This document shows positions 4,105 to 9,005 of a DNA stretch of 36,061 bases, piece by piece; the stretch's first letter is position 1, and every line of letters begins with the position of its first letter. This DNA comes from a virus (lineage: Duplodnaviria; Heunggongvirae; Uroviricota; Caudoviricetes): positions 1 to 36,061 of the IMG/VR virus record IMGVR_UViG_2778261222_000004; one strand, written 5' to 3'. The position numbers and the translations under genes are program-made. The notes beneath the pieces are model-generated. The model was given only the letters and a program-made list of their open reading frames with translations, did no database searches and was not told where the DNA came from.

Positions 4105-4317
4105 ATGAACAAAAAGACCTGGTTTCGCGCATACATGTGGGCGCTGGTATGCGTCCTCGTTTCTCTCATTCTGTATGTGGGGCTACTTCCCAGAATGATT
4201 TCATCAGACAGCTCCTTCCTGGTATTGCTGGGCATTTTTGTCGCCTTGCTGTACCCGGCGGGCGTTGTTCGCTTTTTCAGTAACTACATCAAAGCAATTA
4301 TGGAAACCAAACAATGA
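4105..4317 (+). CDS. small membrane protein (two predicted TM helices)
   Basis: ATG 4105 with GAAGGA about 7 nt upstream; two hydrophobic stretches (WALVCVLVSLILYVGLL and FLVLLGIFVALLYPAGVV); stop overlaps the start of the SPFH gene. Confidence 0.5.
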   Translation: MNKKTWFRAYMWALVCVLVSLILYVGLLPRMISSDSSFLVLLGIFVALLYPAGVVRFFSNYIKAIMETKQ

Positions 4318-5138
4318 AAAAACTATTACCACTCATCCCTCTCCTGATGACCACACTTCTGGTTGGCTGTGACCGCGTGGAGCCGGGCAATGTAGGCATC
4401 AAAGTCAACAAACTGGGCGACGATAAAGGCGTCGGTGAAGTAGTTGGCGTTGGCCGCTACTGGACAGGCTGGAATACAGAGGTTTACATCTTCCCGACTT
4501 TCAAACAAATGAAGACTTACGATGAGCCGTTCAACTTCCAGATGAGTGACGGCACAACCATCGGCTATCACATCGGCGTGGCCTACAAAGTTGATCCATC
4601 CAAAGTTACCACTGTGTTTCAGACCTACCGCAAAGGCGTGGATGACATTACCGACACTGACCTGCGCCAGAAGATCGCCGATGCACTCAACCGACTGGCC
4701 AGCAAAATGACCACCGATAAGTTTATCGACGGTGGCAAGTCTGAACTGCTGGATTCAGCACTTAAAGACATTCAGTCAGAAATGACACCTATCGGCATTC
4801 AGGTCATGAGCCTCTCTTATGTCGGTAAACCGGAATATCCGCCAACCGTTATCGACAGCATTAACGCCAAAGTCACGGCAAACCAGAAAACCCTGCAACG
4901 CGAACAGGAAGTCAAGCAACGCGAAGCAGAAGCCAACATGTTGCGCGCAGAAGCTGCCGGACAGGCTGATGCCATTCGCACAAAAGCCCAGGCTGAAGCC
5001 GACGCCATTCGTTTACGCGGTGAAGCTCTGCGCCAGAATCCCGGCGTTATGGAGCTGGAAGCAATCAACAAATGGAACGGCACGCTGCCGCAATACATGA
5101 CCAGCAACACCGCTGTTCCGTTTGTTCCGGTGAAGTAA
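4314..5138 (+). CDS. SPFH/band-7 (stomatin/flotillin/HflC-like) lipoprotein
   Basis: N-terminal signal peptide with lipobox LLVGC; SPFH-like core; C-terminal Ala/Glu-rich coiled coil (QREAEANMLRAEAAGQADAIRTKAQAEADAIR) and WNGTLP terminal block typical of band-7 proteins. Confidence 0.75.
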   Translation: MKKLLPLIPLLMTTLLVGCDRVEPGNVGIKVNKLGDDKGVGEVVGVGRYWTGWNTEVYIFPTFKQMKTYDEPFNFQMSDGTTIGYHIGVAYKVDPSKVTTVFQTYRKGVDDITDTDLRQKIADALNRLASKMTTDKFIDGGKSELLDSALKDIQSEMTPIGIQVMSLSYVGKPEYPPTVIDSINAKVTANQKTLQREQEVKQREAEANMLRAEAAGQADAIRTKAQAEADAIRLRGEALRQNPGVMELEAINKWNGTLPQYMTSNTAVPFVPVK

Positions 5139-5144
5139 TTAAAC

Positions 5145-5190
5145 CCGGCCAGTGAAAATCGCTGGCCGGAGCAGTATCAGGATTTTTTTT
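5145..5190 (+). terminator. putative intrinsic terminator after the SPFH operon
   Basis: Perfect 8-bp stem CCGGCCAG / CTGGCCGG (5145-5152 / 5162-5169) with a 9-nt loop, followed at a distance by a T8 run (5183-5190). Confidence 0.4.
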
Positions 5191-5370
5191 AGTATGCCGT
5201 TCTCACAAAAAAACCGCTTGCCATGCCGCAATCAGTCAGGTTACATTTCCGCTGCACCTCATAAAACGGGTGCCGGGTTTCGCAGCCTGCTGACAACCAA
5301 AGCGCACAACCGCGCCAGCGGTTTTTTTGTGCGTACTGTATTGCCACGTCTTTTTCGCACACGAATTATG

Positions 5371-5444
5371 GCGGGGCGTACGGGGCCGACTTCGGTCGGG
5401 CCGGGTTCTTTGGTTGCCGGTACTGCGAACCCCGTACGTCTCGC
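5371..5444 (+). other. structured element: 15-bp long-range helix enclosing a UUCG-tetraloop hairpin (candidate ncRNA or RNA regulatory structure)
   Basis: 5371-5385 (GCGGGGCGTACGGGG) pairs with 5430-5444 (CCCCGTACGTCTCGC): 13 Watson-Crick plus 2 G-U pairs; inner hairpin CCGAC-TTCG-GTCGG at 5386-5399; sits in a 370-bp stretch with no convincing ORF. Confidence 0.35.
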
Positions 5445-5507
5445 CACCCACAGTTTCGCAGCTCTGGATGGTGAGTTTTCAAAACTTACAACCAAAGAGG
5501 CCACACC

Positions 5508-5738
5508 ATGGCAAACCGCAAACAGCACCGCGCTATCGCGGAGCGTCGTCACATCCAGACTGAAATCAACCGCAGACTTTCCCGCGCATTCCGCGTCGCT
5601 AAAATCATGCACATCAATATGCTGCATGAGCGTAGCTGCGAACTTTCAAACCTCTACTCATCCGCTGTTTTCAGTTATCTGGCGGATGATCTGCGCGAGC
5701 TTCAGCAGCTCATCCAGCAGCAAAACAAACTCCATTAA
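5508..5738 (+). CDS. hypothetical basic protein
   Basis: 76-aa ORF with RBS AGAGG upstream of ATG 5508; Arg/Lys-rich N-terminus; function unknown. Confidence 0.45.
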   Translation: MANRKQHRAIAERRHIQTEINRRLSRAFRVAKIMHINMLHERSCELSNLYSSAVFSYLADDLRELQQLIQQQNKLH

Positions 5739-5810
5739 TTCCTGTTCCGGGCCTTTCCTGCACCTTGCGGCGGGAGGCCTTCGCACATCTGTAACAAGAG
5801 GATTGCCGCA

Positions 5811-6176
5811 ATGATTCTCGCCAACGACTTTCTTGAATACCTGCTCAACACAGAGCGTGATCTTGCCGCTCGCGTGCGTGATCGTTATGACATGTACCTG
5901 AAATCCCTGCCTGTACCGCAGCTCGCTGACGGAAAGATTGTTATTGATGGTCGCTACATGATTGACAGCCACGAGGGAAATTACAGGCTTTCCCGCATTG
6001 AAGGTGGCACCCCGTCCGTTATTGGCATTTACCAGCGCCCATCCTCTGCAATCGTCGATGTGATTGCCGACAGCATCCGCATCACACATCGCCATGCCGA
6101 CACAGAAGACACCGTGCTGGAAATTCAGCGGCTGGCTACAGTCTGCCGCGACACCCTGAATGGCATGACGAAGTAA
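5811..6176 (+). CDS. hypothetical protein immediately upstream of the replication gene
   Basis: 121-aa ORF with RBS AAGAGGA; same strand and tight spacing with the A-type gene. Confidence 0.5.
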   Translation: MILANDFLEYLLNTERDLAARVRDRYDMYLKSLPVPQLADGKIVIDGRYMIDSHEGNYRLSRIEGGTPSVIGIYQRPSSAIVDVIADSIRITHRHADTEDTVLEIQRLATVCRDTLNGMTK

Positions 6177-6182
6177 ATCACT

Positions 6183-9005
6183 ATGACGGCAGAGTACATC
6201 AGGGACTGGCAACAACCGCGCCACGCAGTGGGGCGTGAAGGAACGGGGATCCCCGCTCCTGAATCCGCGCTTTCCTCCTGGCTGGATGCCTACCGGGTAG
6301 AGAACGAGCGCCGCCAGGAAATGGCTGATGCGGCGTTCTCCGCCACGCCGCTGGGCAACCTGATTAATAAAAGCCTGGACGCACAGGAAAAACAGGACAA
6401 AACCATCACACTGGCAGGAGACGCCAGAAAACAGGCACGCGGCGCAGTGGATGAAGCCATGACCTCGCTGCGCCTGCTGCCGTCCTATCTGCGCGATCCG
6501 CTTATTCGCCACCTCTCCTTCCTGCGCAAAAAACAGGAAGCCGATCGCCGGAAAGGCAAAAAGAGCTGGCAGGCTGAACGCTACGCGCGCGGAACCCTGC
6601 GCAAAATATTCGTACGTCTGGACCGCACCGACAGCCGTTGGCTGACACCGGGTTATCGGTCCCTTGCCGGACGTGAACGCCTGGACGATTTGCTTTACCT
6701 GCCGCAACTCAACAAACACCAGATACAGACGCTGGCCACCATGACGGCGGCGATGTTCAGCAGCACCTTCGAAAAACTCTGCGATGGTTTTGGCGCGACT
6801 GATGGCGAGCTGACCATGGATGTAACGCTGAAGGCGTATCAGATGCTGGCCCGCATGGCGTTACACTTGCACGCCATGCCTCCGCATTATGACGCACTGA
6901 CAACAGACAAAGACCGGAGGAACGAACCGGACACAGAACTGCTGCCGGGCGCAATCCTTCGCCTGACCTGTGCGGAATGGTGGAAACGCAAACTGTGGCT
7001 GTTACGTTGCGAGTGGAGAGAAGAACAACTCCGCGCCGCCTGTCTGGTTTCCAGAAAAACATCGCCCTATCTGAGCCAGGACGCGTTAAGCGAGTTTCGC
7101 GCACAGCGCGAGAAAACACGCGATTTCCTGAAAAGTTTCATGCTGGAAAACGAAGACGGGTTCACGATTGATCTCGAGACAGTGTATTACGCGGGAGTAA
7201 GTAACCCGGTTCACCGTAAGGCAGAAATGATGGCCACCATGAAGGGGCTGGAACTTCTGGCCGAAGCCCGTGGCGACAGAGCGGTGTTTCTGACCATCAC
7301 CTGCCCGTCAAAATACCACGCCACAACAGAGAACGGTCATCCGAATCCCAAATGGAATGGGGCCACCATGCGCGACTCCAGCGATTACCTGGTTAACACG
7401 TTTTTTGCGGCGGTCCGCAAGAAACTGAACCGCGACGGCCTGCGCTGGTATGGTATCCGCACGGTGGAGCCTCACCATGACGGCACCGTGCACTGGCATA
7501 TGATGGTCTTTGCTCATCCGGAAGAAATCGACACCATTGTGTCTCACACCCGCGATATTGCCATTCAGGAAGATCGTCACGAGCTGGGTGATGATATTAC
7601 CCCACGCTTTAAGGCGGAGTACGTCGACGGCTCAAAAGGCACGCCAACCAGCTACATCGCCACCTACATCGGAAAGAACCTGGACAGCCGCGCCGTAGAT
7701 GGCATCGACCCGAAAACGGGCAAGCCACGCGTTGACCACGAAACCGGAAAATCAATGGCCGAGAGCGTGGAACGCGCCATCGGCTGGGCGCGCCTTCACC
7801 GTGTCCGCCAGTTCCAGTTCTTTGGTATCCCCTCCCGTCAGGTGTGGCGTGAACTCCGCCGCCTTGCCAGCCAGATGGCACGCAACCCGGAAGGCCCGCA
7901 ACGGCTGAAGGATGACGCAATGGATGCGGTACTCGCTGCCGCTGATGCCGGATGTTTTGCCACCTACATAGAGAAACAGGGCGGCGTACTTGTTCCACGC
8001 AAAGACTACCTGATTCGCACAGCCTACGACCTCGCAGATGAGCTGAACGATTACGGCGAACAGAGCGTACAGATTTACGGGATCTGGTCACCACTCATCG
8101 GGGAATCCTCCCGTGTGTGCACGCATCCGGATAACTGGATGCTGGTAAGACGTAAACCGGAAGCGGAAGACAGCACCCGCGAAAATGGTTTTGACCTTCA
8201 GGGCGGCCCTGCCGCCCCTTGGACTCGTGGCAATAACTGTCCCCGTGTACAGGAAACAGGCAACAACGGGACAGAACAGCCGGAAGAACGGCCAGCACCG
8301 TGGCCGCAGATTCCTGACGGCGTTGAAGTGAATGAATGGATGCGCTCACTGAAACGGCACGAACGCCGGGCGCTGATGCGTTCGCTTCGTGACAAACAGG
8401 CAAAAAACAGCAGTGATGAAATGCAAAGCTGGACACAGAGCCGCAAACAGCAGCGGCCTTTGCCTGATAACCACGAATTACTCGCTAAAGAATGGCGGGA
8501 GTCTGCTGAATCTCTCGGCCTGCATATTGGTGAACAGCAGATGCAGCACCTGTTACGGGGCGGCAGTCTGTACGTTGACGGCAGCATCATTGCACCGCAG
8601 GGATTTGAAATTGTACGCAAACCGGATACCCGCCCGGACAGCCGAATCACGCAGCTCTGGCAGCGCCTGAGCCGTAATCACGGCGTAAGCAGCACGGAGA
8701 TCCGCCATAACCCGGCCGCCAGCTATCTGGAACAGCTGGGGGCATCAGACCCCGAAGCCGCCGCACGTCTGGCATCCACACTTCAGCAGGACCAGAACAC
8801 CATGAAAACCCCCGTTACCGTGCTTTCTGACATGCTGCGCGCCATCCGCGACGCAGAGCATGCACAGAGAATCAGTGAAACCACTGAACGCGCCCGCCGC
8901 AAAGCAGACCTGCTGCGGGGTGGCCTGACAAGTGGAAACAAAAAACAGACAGAAACGGGATTCACAAATCCCGTAAATGAGCAAAAAACGCGCCGCGATA
9001 TATGA
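6183..9005 (+). CDS. rolling-circle replication initiator endonuclease (P2 A / phiX174 gpA family, HUH superfamily)
   Basis: 940-aa ORF; HUH-type motif HWHMMVF and paired catalytic tyrosines YIATYIGK; position after the early operon as in P2; long hydrophilic C-terminal extension. Confidence 0.9.
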   Translation: MTAEYIRDWQQPRHAVGREGTGIPAPESALSSWLDAYRVENERRQEMADAAFSATPLGNLINKSLDAQEKQDKTITLAGDARKQARGAVDEAMTSLRLLPSYLRDPLIRHLSFLRKKQEADRRKGKKSWQAERYARGTLRKIFVRLDRTDSRWLTPGYRSLAGRERLDDLLYLPQLNKHQIQTLATMTAAMFSSTFEKLCDGFGATDGELTMDVTLKAYQMLARMALHLHAMPPHYDALTTDKDRRNEPDTELLPGAILRLTCAEWWKRKLWLLRCEWREEQLRAACLVSRKTSPYLSQDALSEFRAQREKTRDFLKSFMLENEDGFTIDLETVYYAGVSNPVHRKAEMMATMKGLELLAEARGDRAVFLTITCPSKYHATTENGHPNPKWNGATMRDSSDYLVNTFFAAVRKKLNRDGLRWYGIRTVEPHHDGTVHWHMMVFAHPEEIDTIVSHTRDIAIQEDRHELGDDITPRFKAEYVDGSKGTPTSYIATYIGKNLDSRAVDGIDPKTGKPRVDHETGKSMAESVERAIGWARLHRVRQFQFFGIPSRQVWRELRRLASQMARNPEGPQRLKDDAMDAVLAAADAGCFATYIEKQGGVLVPRKDYLIRTAYDLADELNDYGEQSVQIYGIWSPLIGESSRVCTHPDNWMLVRRKPEAEDSTRENGFDLQGGPAAPWTRGNNCPRVQETGNNGTEQPEERPAPWPQIPDGVEVNEWMRSLKRHERRALMRSLRDKQAKNSSDEMQSWTQSRKQQRPLPDNHELLAKEWRESAESLGLHIGEQQMQHLLRGGSLYVDGSIIAPQGFEIVRKPDTRPDSRITQLWQRLSRNHGVSSTEIRHNPAASYLEQLGASDPEAAARLASTLQQDQNTMKTPVTVLSDMLRAIRDAEHAQRISETTERARRKADLLRGGLTSGNKKQTETGFTNPVNEQKTRRDI
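8953..8977. repeat. 25-bp palindromic element, copy 1 (AAACGGGATTCACAAATCCCGTAAA)
   Basis: Inverted repeat ACGGGATT / AATCCCGT inside the last codons of the A-type ORF; matches copy 2 at 23 of 25 positions. Confidence 0.6.

Follow-up and report, generated by a model that had tools for sequence, protein, structure and literature searches.

Positions 5,191 to 5,507 of the viral record IMGVR_UViG_2778261222_000004 (36,061 nucleotides in all, hereafter the window) form a gap between a gene for an SPFH/Band-7 lipoprotein-like protein and a gene for a 76-residue protein. We consider it probable that this gap is the antisense-RNA control region of an anti-repressor gene in a P88-like prophage, with the two RNAs IsrK and C4, and that it is built like the immunity cassettes of P4, P1 and Gifsy-1. 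Both RNA families and this type of phage immunity and anti-repressor control are already known, i.e., the cassette is an ordinary and widespread one and no new principle is involved. The original prediction, made from the letters alone, had described a gap without a credible open reading frame (ORF), containing a long-range helix, a UUCG hairpin and a terminator-like element. It had proposed a small RNA, an RNase III site, an RNA switch or a leader structure controlling the replication-side genes downstream, had suggested an Rfam scan, RNA folding and covariation analysis as checks, and had named translation as a genuine protein in relatives as the outcome that would speak against it.

Two structured RNAs in the gap

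The Rfam scan covered the whole 36-kb window on both strands, using the gathering thresholds of 4,227 families. It gave exactly two matches, isrK and C4 antisense RNA, both in the gap and both on the plus strand. The first is an IsrK-type small RNA (RF01394) at 5254-5328, which scores 65.9 bits (gathering threshold 50, E = 4e-12), aligns to positions 1-77 of the 77-position model and has the parts expected of the family: hairpin 1, hairpin 2 with a recognition site (a1) in its loop, a linker bearing a second site (b1) and an intrinsic terminator (5308-5328, a 6-bp stem followed by U7). The hairpin with a T7 run in the original prediction is this terminator; it belongs to a separate upstream RNA, so the gap holds two RNAs and not one. 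When folded alone, this single IsrK locus is not significantly stable (z = -0.87).

A promoter-like site lies just upstream of IsrK on the plus strand (5218-5247), with a -35 hexamer TTGCCA (5218-5223), an 18-nt spacer and a -10 hexamer TACATT (5242-5247), a 9/12 match. Hexamers and spacing are retained in P88-like relatives, even in one whose spacer differs (L070). Going by its position, this candidate promoter would initiate near G5254, the first base of IsrK. We rejected a second promoter-like site (5341-5369), as its -35 is not kept in P88 or lambdoid relatives and its start would fall inside the C4 stem.

The second match is a C4/CI-type antisense RNA (RF01695) at 5364-5451 on the plus strand, with 87.1 bits (gathering threshold 45, E = 4.6e-16) and full coverage of the model (1-87 of 87). 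Its closing stem has 17 bp (5369-5385/5430-5446), and the core of that stem (5371-5385/5430-5444) is a 15-bp helix with two G-U pairs, G5374-U5441 and G5376-U5439. It encloses the UUCG hairpin CCGAC-UUCG-GUCGG (hairpin 1, 5386-5399) and hairpin 2 (5400-5421), which consists of the stem GCCGG/CCGGU (5400-5404/5417-5421) and a 12-nt loop. Folding and Rfam thus confirm the helix, the UUCG hairpin and the short CCGG stem of the original prediction, each where it had placed them, and its small RNA or regulatory leader is a full-length C4 RNA in the leader of an operon that runs into replication gene A.

The other two checks agree with this assignment. The 5360-5450 segment folds at -49.8 kcal/mol (z = -4.26), and none of 200 shuffles was as stable. 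For covariation, we aligned C4 from 20 distinct sequences: the window, P88, mEp460, P4 and 16 viral contigs. The fold is paired in 94.6% of cells, compared with 79.8% in column shuffles and 32-51% when partners were slid. Both sides have changed in 14 of the 27 pairs, and none of 500 shuffles reached the covariation score. Because the pattern used for collecting relatives already specified hairpin 2 and part of hairpin 1, it is uninformative that these do not vary, and the evidence comes from the closing stem and the stem of hairpin 1. The mark of the C4 family, a long closing stem around two hairpins with compensatory changes, is therefore present.

The C4 stem and its ACC(C/A) tail resemble the acceptor end of a tRNA. 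RNase P processes C4-class RNA in P1 and P4, and excision of C4 by the same enzyme would fit the tRNA-like stem and ACC tail seen here.

Recognition segments and their variation among relatives

C4 exposes two segments, each with a complement on either side of it on the same transcript (all on the plus strand). Segment b' (GUUCUUUGGUUG, 5405-5416) is the 12-nt loop of hairpin 2; it is hypervariable among relatives, and b1 and b2 always match it. Segment a' (ACUGCGAA, 5422-5429) is the junction, single-stranded, that links hairpin 2 to the closing stem. On the 5' side, both targets lie in IsrK: a1 (UUCGCAG, 5279-5285), in the loop of hairpin 2, can form 7 Watson-Crick pairs with 5423-5429 (free energy -10.5 kcal/mol), and b1 (CAACCAAAG, 5294-5302), in the linker just 5' of the terminator, can form 9 with 5408-5416 (-13.9 kcal/mol). 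On the 3' side, both lie in the leader: a2 (UUUCGCAG, 5454-5461) is complementary to a' (-10.5 kcal/mol), and b2 (CAACCAAAGAG, 5489-5499) is complementary to b' through 10 Watson-Crick pairs and one G-U (-14.2 kcal/mol).

The b1 9-mer occurs on the plus strand of the window at 5294 and 5489 only, and the complement of a' has, as an 8-mer, two copies only, 5278-5285 (a1) and 5454-5461 (a2). Site b2 overlaps the Shine-Dalgarno sequence AGAGG (5496-5500), which ends 7 nt ahead of the ATG at 5508. The window therefore shows both of the sequence relations that characterise C4: two exposed segments complementary to sites 5' and 3' on one transcript, and a 3' site on the ribosome-binding site of the first gene in an anti-repressor or immunity operon. 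That first gene is the P4 epsilon-like gene at 5508-5738, and the predicted control of downstream genes is supported in so far as its ribosome-binding site is the probable direct target; the replication genes, which the original prediction had in mind, would be reached only indirectly, via polarity.

To collect relatives, viral contigs were scanned with a pattern. This gave 120 loci. Requiring both hairpins removed 86 of them, which were chance matches in GC-rich DNA. The filtered set comprises 37 unique cassettes from phages and viral contigs, and these represent 22 (a',b') types, with 19 variants of b' and 14 of a'. Almost all 37 have complements of a' and b' at the same offsets 5' and 3' of C4. 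For example, the P88 loop CUGUAGUUG is matched by CAACUACAG in IsrK and its junction GUGGAAA by UUUCCAC, and the mEp460 loop CUUUGGUGA is matched by UCACCAAAG and UUUCCAC by GUGGAAA, all compensatory relative to the window.

Each target was compared with its own segment and with those of the other types. Site b2 matches its own b' at 8 or more of 9 positions in 19 of the 22 types, compared with 1 of 426 cross comparisons; b1 does so in 14 of 22 (0 of 426). For a2, a full match to its own a' (7 of 7 positions) is seen in 16 of the 22 types, compared with 0 of 396 cross comparisons. In every one of the 22 types, b2 is followed by a Shine-Dalgarno-like purine run and then by an ATG 4-13 nt past its end (7-12 nt in most). 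All six segments (a', b', a1, b1, a2 and b2) thus co-vary across relatives, a1 with a' and b1 with b' included, and such co-variation is, at the level of sequence, the signature of a base-pairing regulator with a variable “address”, like c4 of P1 and P7.

The two halves of the address also reassort: the window shares its b' with L061 and L113 and its a' with L055, L068 and L070. Some E. coli genomes hold up to four cassettes. Taken with the shared segments, reassortment of a' and b' suggests a combinatorial immunity code among co-resident prophages.

One further leader element varies together with C4. The box GGAUGGUGAG (5466-5475, plus strand) can pair with the 3' arm of the closing stem (5440-5446), and it covaries with that arm in L013, L062 and L088/L090 (mean duplex 8.0 with the own arm vs 6.5 in cross comparisons). 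This pattern suggests an alternative hairpin or helix in the unprocessed transcript, which would present a2 in a loop. The leader folded alone is not significant at this single locus (z = -1.22).

The probable target gene, its setting and known relatives

The gene behind b2 (5508-5738, plus strand, 76 residues) matches Pfam PF25738 “Derepression” with 29.5 bits (cut-off 27), which makes it a marginal member of the family; P4 epsilon itself scores 170 bits. BLASTP aligns the two proteins with 29% identity over 66 residues (E = 1e-8). Among ten P88-like relatives, the variable sites of the gene number 23, 24 and 46 at codon positions one to three, and because of this third-position excess we take it to be a true coding frame. 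P4 epsilon binds the C protein of P2 and so derepresses P2. By analogy, the 76-residue protein would be an anti-repressor acting on the prophage's own P2-C-type repressor, which is encoded at 1057-1374 on the minus strand (52% identical to P2 C, E = 5e-34). In more distant cassettes (L036, L065 and L088), the genes behind b2 encode DUF3077 or DUF6124 proteins, and their place suggests that these may be anti-repressor or immunity-related proteins.

As a prophage, the window is P2-like and belongs to the P88 type (genus Xuanwuvirus); across the gap and its flanks it is 92-94% identical to phage P88 and relatives. Its genes run in the order integrase, C repressor, cox, accessory genes, SPFH lipoprotein, gap, the 76-residue gene, a 121-residue gene (orf121) and the gpA-type replication nickase (gene A). 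The SPFH/Band-7 gene (4314-5138, plus strand) is a prophage accessory gene just 5' of the gap, with a lipoprotein-like signal (LVGC). Behind it stands a hairpin (stem 5145-5152/5162-5169), followed by 13 nt and then a T8 run (within 5145-5190). We rejected this hairpin (5145-5169) as a canonical terminator, as the T-run begins 13 nt beyond the stem, and because of this distance early-operon transcription may read on into the cassette. The nickase (6183-9005, plus strand) has 940 residues, compared with 761 for the annotated P2 gpA, and the Pfam GPA domain covers residues 179-503 only, which leaves long extra N- and C-terminal regions. An NCBIfam search of the window's ORFs gave zero matches.

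Phage P2 has no such cassette: the interval from int to A in its genome gave no Rfam match. A close parallel in layout is the satellite P4, where isrK (60.8 bits) and C4 (74.9 bits) occur in the same order and the complementarity of a' and b' is visible in the sequence. The P4 order is isrK/seqA, C4/CI, an Icd-like ORF, epsilon, two small ORFs and alpha. The gene order of the window matches this, with an epsilon-family gene downstream of C4 and the replication gene further on. They differ in that P4 has the Icd-like ORF between CI and epsilon, whereas b2 of the window lies directly on the Shine-Dalgarno sequence of the epsilon-like gene, and in that the P4 replication gene is the alpha primase rather than a P2-type gpA nickase. 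The two epsilon-type proteins are only distantly related, and orf121 has no similarity to orf151 of P4. The window is also a complete P2-like phage whose anti-repressor would act on its own repressor, unlike P4 epsilon, which acts on that of the helper. We found no description of a P2-like phage with a P4-like CI/epsilon module in the literature searched.

The immI region of P1 and P7 (a1 b1, c4, a2 b2/icd, ant) is alike in principle. There, as in the window, one transcript carries both the antisense RNA and its target, the two recognition segments have matching sites 5' and 3', of which the 3' one lies on the ribosome-binding site of the first gene of the anti-repressor operon, and the segments form a variable specificity code. 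The details of P1 c4 were reportedly worked out by Citron and Schuster in 1990 (cited in bioRxiv 10.1101/2020.03.17.996009). In P1 the regulated genes are icd and ant rather than an epsilon-like gene, and the a1b1 element of the window, unlike that of P1, ends in its own terminator and scores as isrK. Upstream a1b1 targets have an Rfam family of their own, c4-a1b1 (RF03163, listed in PMC2864571).

Gifsy-1 offers experimental evidence. It has isrK and a C4-family RNA (both matched by Rfam) and an anti-repressor gene in direct succession; it is a lambdoid phage with a different anti-repressor. The C4 match coincides with what is called “orf45”/STnc1160, and since it directly follows isrK and precedes the anti-repressor gene, we take orf45/STnc1160 to be the C4 homologue. 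In this prophage, the isrK promoter yields short IsrK and read-through transcripts, and the latter are processed to a stable RNA, STnc1160, of about 80 nt (Hershko-Shalev et al. 2016, PMC4825925). When IsrK is provided in trans, translation of the anti-repressor goes up about 140-fold and the prophage is induced; IsrK acts independently of Hfq, and compensatory mutations confirm that it base-pairs with the stretch identified here as C4 (PMC4825925). Its authors point to the analogy with seqA and CI of P4, and the name C4 is not used there (PMC4825925).

The cassette is found well beyond these three systems. The isrK and C4 pair also matches in P88, mEp460 and an Stx2a phage. In the lambdoid/Stx2 phages mEp460 and Stx2a_1447, the cassette has about 72% DNA identity with that of the window, the same Rfam matches and the same geometry of a and b segments, but it lies after cII and the regulated gene encodes a Rha-type anti-repressor (Phage_pRha). 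On other contigs it stands ahead of Icd-like genes or of genes for DUF3077 or DUF6124 proteins, and APSE phages are reported to have both RNAs (bioRxiv 10.1101/2020.03.17.996009). In E. coli, the cassette of the window is present at 80% identity or more in 1,240 of 5,426 complete genomes. It is usually mis-annotated there as “ash family protein”.

Mechanism, alternatives and meaning

Given these parts, the cassette would most likely work as follows. A constitutive promoter at about 5218-5247 would make mostly short, terminated IsrK, and the read-through transcripts would carry C4, which would be cut out as a stable RNA of about 80 nt. Free C4 would pair with a2 and b2 on the same class of transcript and block ribosome binding to the epsilon-like gene, and the loss of translation would probably also lower transcription of the downstream orf121 and gene A (polarity). 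In the lysogen the anti-repressor would then remain off, and the block would extend to incoming phages that share the a'/b' code. IsrK, with the same two target sites, could act as a decoy that competes for C4 or could open a cis-paired transcript. The balance of IsrK to C4 would set the threshold for induction: a rise of IsrK relative to C4 would free the ribosome-binding site, and the epsilon-like protein would then be made and inactivate the P2-C-type repressor, leading to induction.

Several points weigh against this scheme. For the promoter, the processing of C4 and its action in trans, the scheme relies on homologues, and the PF25738 match of the regulated gene barely clears its cut-off. 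The duplex energies at this single locus are only modest, with 9-31 of 500 shuffles equally good, and it is the comparative data that carry the weight. Neither a LexA box nor any other input signal that would tip the switch was found, and the search pointed to no SOS input; of loose matches to the LexA box there were 16 (11.5 expected), none of which lay near the cassette or was AT-rich. In the minimum-energy fold of the complete read-through transcript (5254-5530), IsrK pairs with C4 in cis and the Shine-Dalgarno sequence stays open, so a cis switch may contribute. In Gifsy-1, constitutive STnc1160 failed to prevent the growth arrest mediated by IsrK and made it more pronounced (PMC4825925), so a simple model in which C4 represses and IsrK titrates does not fit. 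Because of this result and the cis fold, we keep a cis switch and a P4-type termination mechanism as live rivals, which are not exclusive.

In the P4-type mechanism, C4 would chiefly pair with the sites 5' and 3' of it on nascent transcripts, cause premature transcription termination and so silence orf121 and gene A, as a second immunity system in place of anti-repressor control. We regard this as possible, though not as the likely course. The gene order of the window is that of the P4 left operon, which ends in a replication gene, and the a1 and b1 sites lie just 5' of the IsrK terminator; the finding that b2 lies on the ribosome-binding site of the first gene in 22 of 22 types points instead to blocked translation as the primary effect. 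The two are not exclusive, since in P1 the repression of translation by c4 leads to Rho-dependent termination. The Gifsy-1 authors themselves raised the termination idea for STnc1160 (PMC4825925). We think it unlikely that the switch acts purely in cis as modelled for Gifsy-1, i.e., that the mRNA locks itself by pairing a1/b1 with a'/b', that short IsrK opens it in trans so that translation can start at the orf45 AUG in the 5' arm of C4, and that excised C4 is no repressor. This would agree with the cis pairing in the 5254-5530 fold, with Gifsy-1 mutational data that fit IsrK working both in cis and in trans (PMC4825925), and with a frame from the conserved AUG in C4 that is open in 27 of 33 units. 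It leaves unexplained, however, why a2 and b2 exist, why they co-vary with a' and b' and why b2 lies on the Shine-Dalgarno sequence, as well as the accumulation of a stable, processed RNA of C4 size in Gifsy-1. In addition, the orf45 frame of the window has no stop at the gene start, so termination-reinitiation coupling of the Gifsy type is not conserved.

Two other readings do without antisense control. One holds that 5254-5507 is a protein-coding gene for an “Ash family protein” and that the RNA folds are incidental, which we consider very improbable. The plus-strand ORF 5152-5814 does match the Pfam profile PF10554 Phage_ASH over residues 31-122 (31.8 bits, cut-off 26), RefSeq has the gap stretch as a pseudogene of an “ash family protein”, most relatives keep the frame open, and a tagged orf45 product was detected in Gifsy-1 (PMC4825925). 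Yet the variable sites in 5254-5507 (24, 27 and 22 by codon position) lack the codon periodicity expected of an evolving protein, and changes across cassettes are compensatory at the RNA level. The frame has no conserved start or Shine-Dalgarno sequence (in the window the ORF begins at a GTG inside the 3' hairpin of the preceding gene), and it is broken by stops in the more distant units L030, L036, L065 and L088. The original prediction was thus right that the gap lacks a credible protein signal, although one plus-strand frame is open throughout and annotated in databases; and where relatives are said to encode a protein here (an “ash family protein” or a lambdoid anti-repressor N-terminus), the substitutions are RNA-like and not protein-like. 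The other reading, that the gap is a riboswitch for a metabolite, a processing site for RNase III or a GC-rich hairpin formed by accident, has next to no chance of being right. A long helix and a stable tetraloop are generic features that would suit it, but no riboswitch matched among the Rfam families scanned, the isrK and C4 matches are specific and full-length, the fold covaries, and the 17-bp helix belongs to a family matured by RNase P rather than RNase III. Nothing was found in support of the RNase III site or the ligand-sensing switch of the original prediction.

The Ash family itself can be accounted for by the antisense cassette. The PF10554 profile spans exactly IsrK, C4 and the leader, and it also matches the obsolete “cI protein” of P4, of 137 residues, as well as residues 1-200 of the mEp460 anti-repressor as annotated; matches lie at 5152-5814 (plus strand) of the window, 1441-1704 of L125, 8168-8584 of L124 (minus strand) and 2641-3792 of L002 (mEp460). 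From these sequences, the family looks largely like a conceptual translation of the isrK, C4 and leader cassette, spurious or at best incidental. The annotated anti-repressor coding sequences (CDS) of mEp460 (L002 2641-3792) and Stx2a_1447 (L003 2646-3797) start about 600 nt too far 5', running through isrK and C4, and the Rha domain of the mEp460 CDS begins only past the ATG behind b2 (L002 3247). The P88 record (GenBank KP063541, L001 5033-5221, minus strand) has a hypothetical protein annotated across isrK and C4, which is likely a false CDS.

The frame that starts at the conserved AUG in the 5' arm of C4 (5368) deserves a separate look. In the 27 units named above it has no stop up to the downstream ATG. 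In the window (5368-5814, plus strand), it stays open through the leader and, in the +1 frame, through the entire epsilon-like gene, and its TGA (5812-5814) overlaps the ATG of orf121 (5811) as ATGA; the Gifsy-1 frame from the C4 AUG differs in stopping on the anti-repressor start (AUGA). All 10 P88-like sequences (the window and nine relatives) keep the frame from the C4 AUG open across the epsilon-like gene, and it ends at the orf121 ATGA in 7 of these, the window included, with a TAA a few codons later in L038 and L070 and at the end of orf121 in L061. Synonymous resampling of nine of the ten variants gave an open frame in only 0.6-39% per variant, which is suggestive but has to be read in the light of the relatedness of the sequences. 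The “protein” itself is not conserved, as most changes fall at its codon position 2. These observations leave a small chance that the C4 RNA gene doubles as the start of a long “transit” frame. If ribosomes use it, as they do the much shorter orf45 in Gifsy-1 (PMC4825925), translation begun inside C4 would be coupled to orf121 and the replication gene, giving the switch a second output independent of the anti-repressor.

For annotation, the consequence of the IsrK and C4 reading is that about one in four complete E. coli genomes has a regulatory RNA cassette which is routinely entered as protein, whether under the name “ash family protein”, as a hypothetical CDS (on one strand or the other) or as the N-terminal part of anti-repressors. 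Conceptually translated RNA genes thus probably underlie prophage annotations as well as at least one Pfam family. The comparison also joins three literatures, those on P1 c4, P4 CI and Gifsy-1 IsrK/orf45, as one cassette, and its freely reassorting a'/b' address segments could serve to predict immunity groups among co-resident prophages.

For the phages themselves, the finding bears on induction. P2 is classically non-inducible. P88, in contrast, was obtained by mitomycin C induction (PMC5285337), and its own P4-epsilon-like anti-repressor under antisense-RNA control is suggested as the reason why P88-like phages are inducible and their relative P2 is not. It is also a hint that the derepression module of the satellite P4 and that of P88-like, helper-type phages share an origin.

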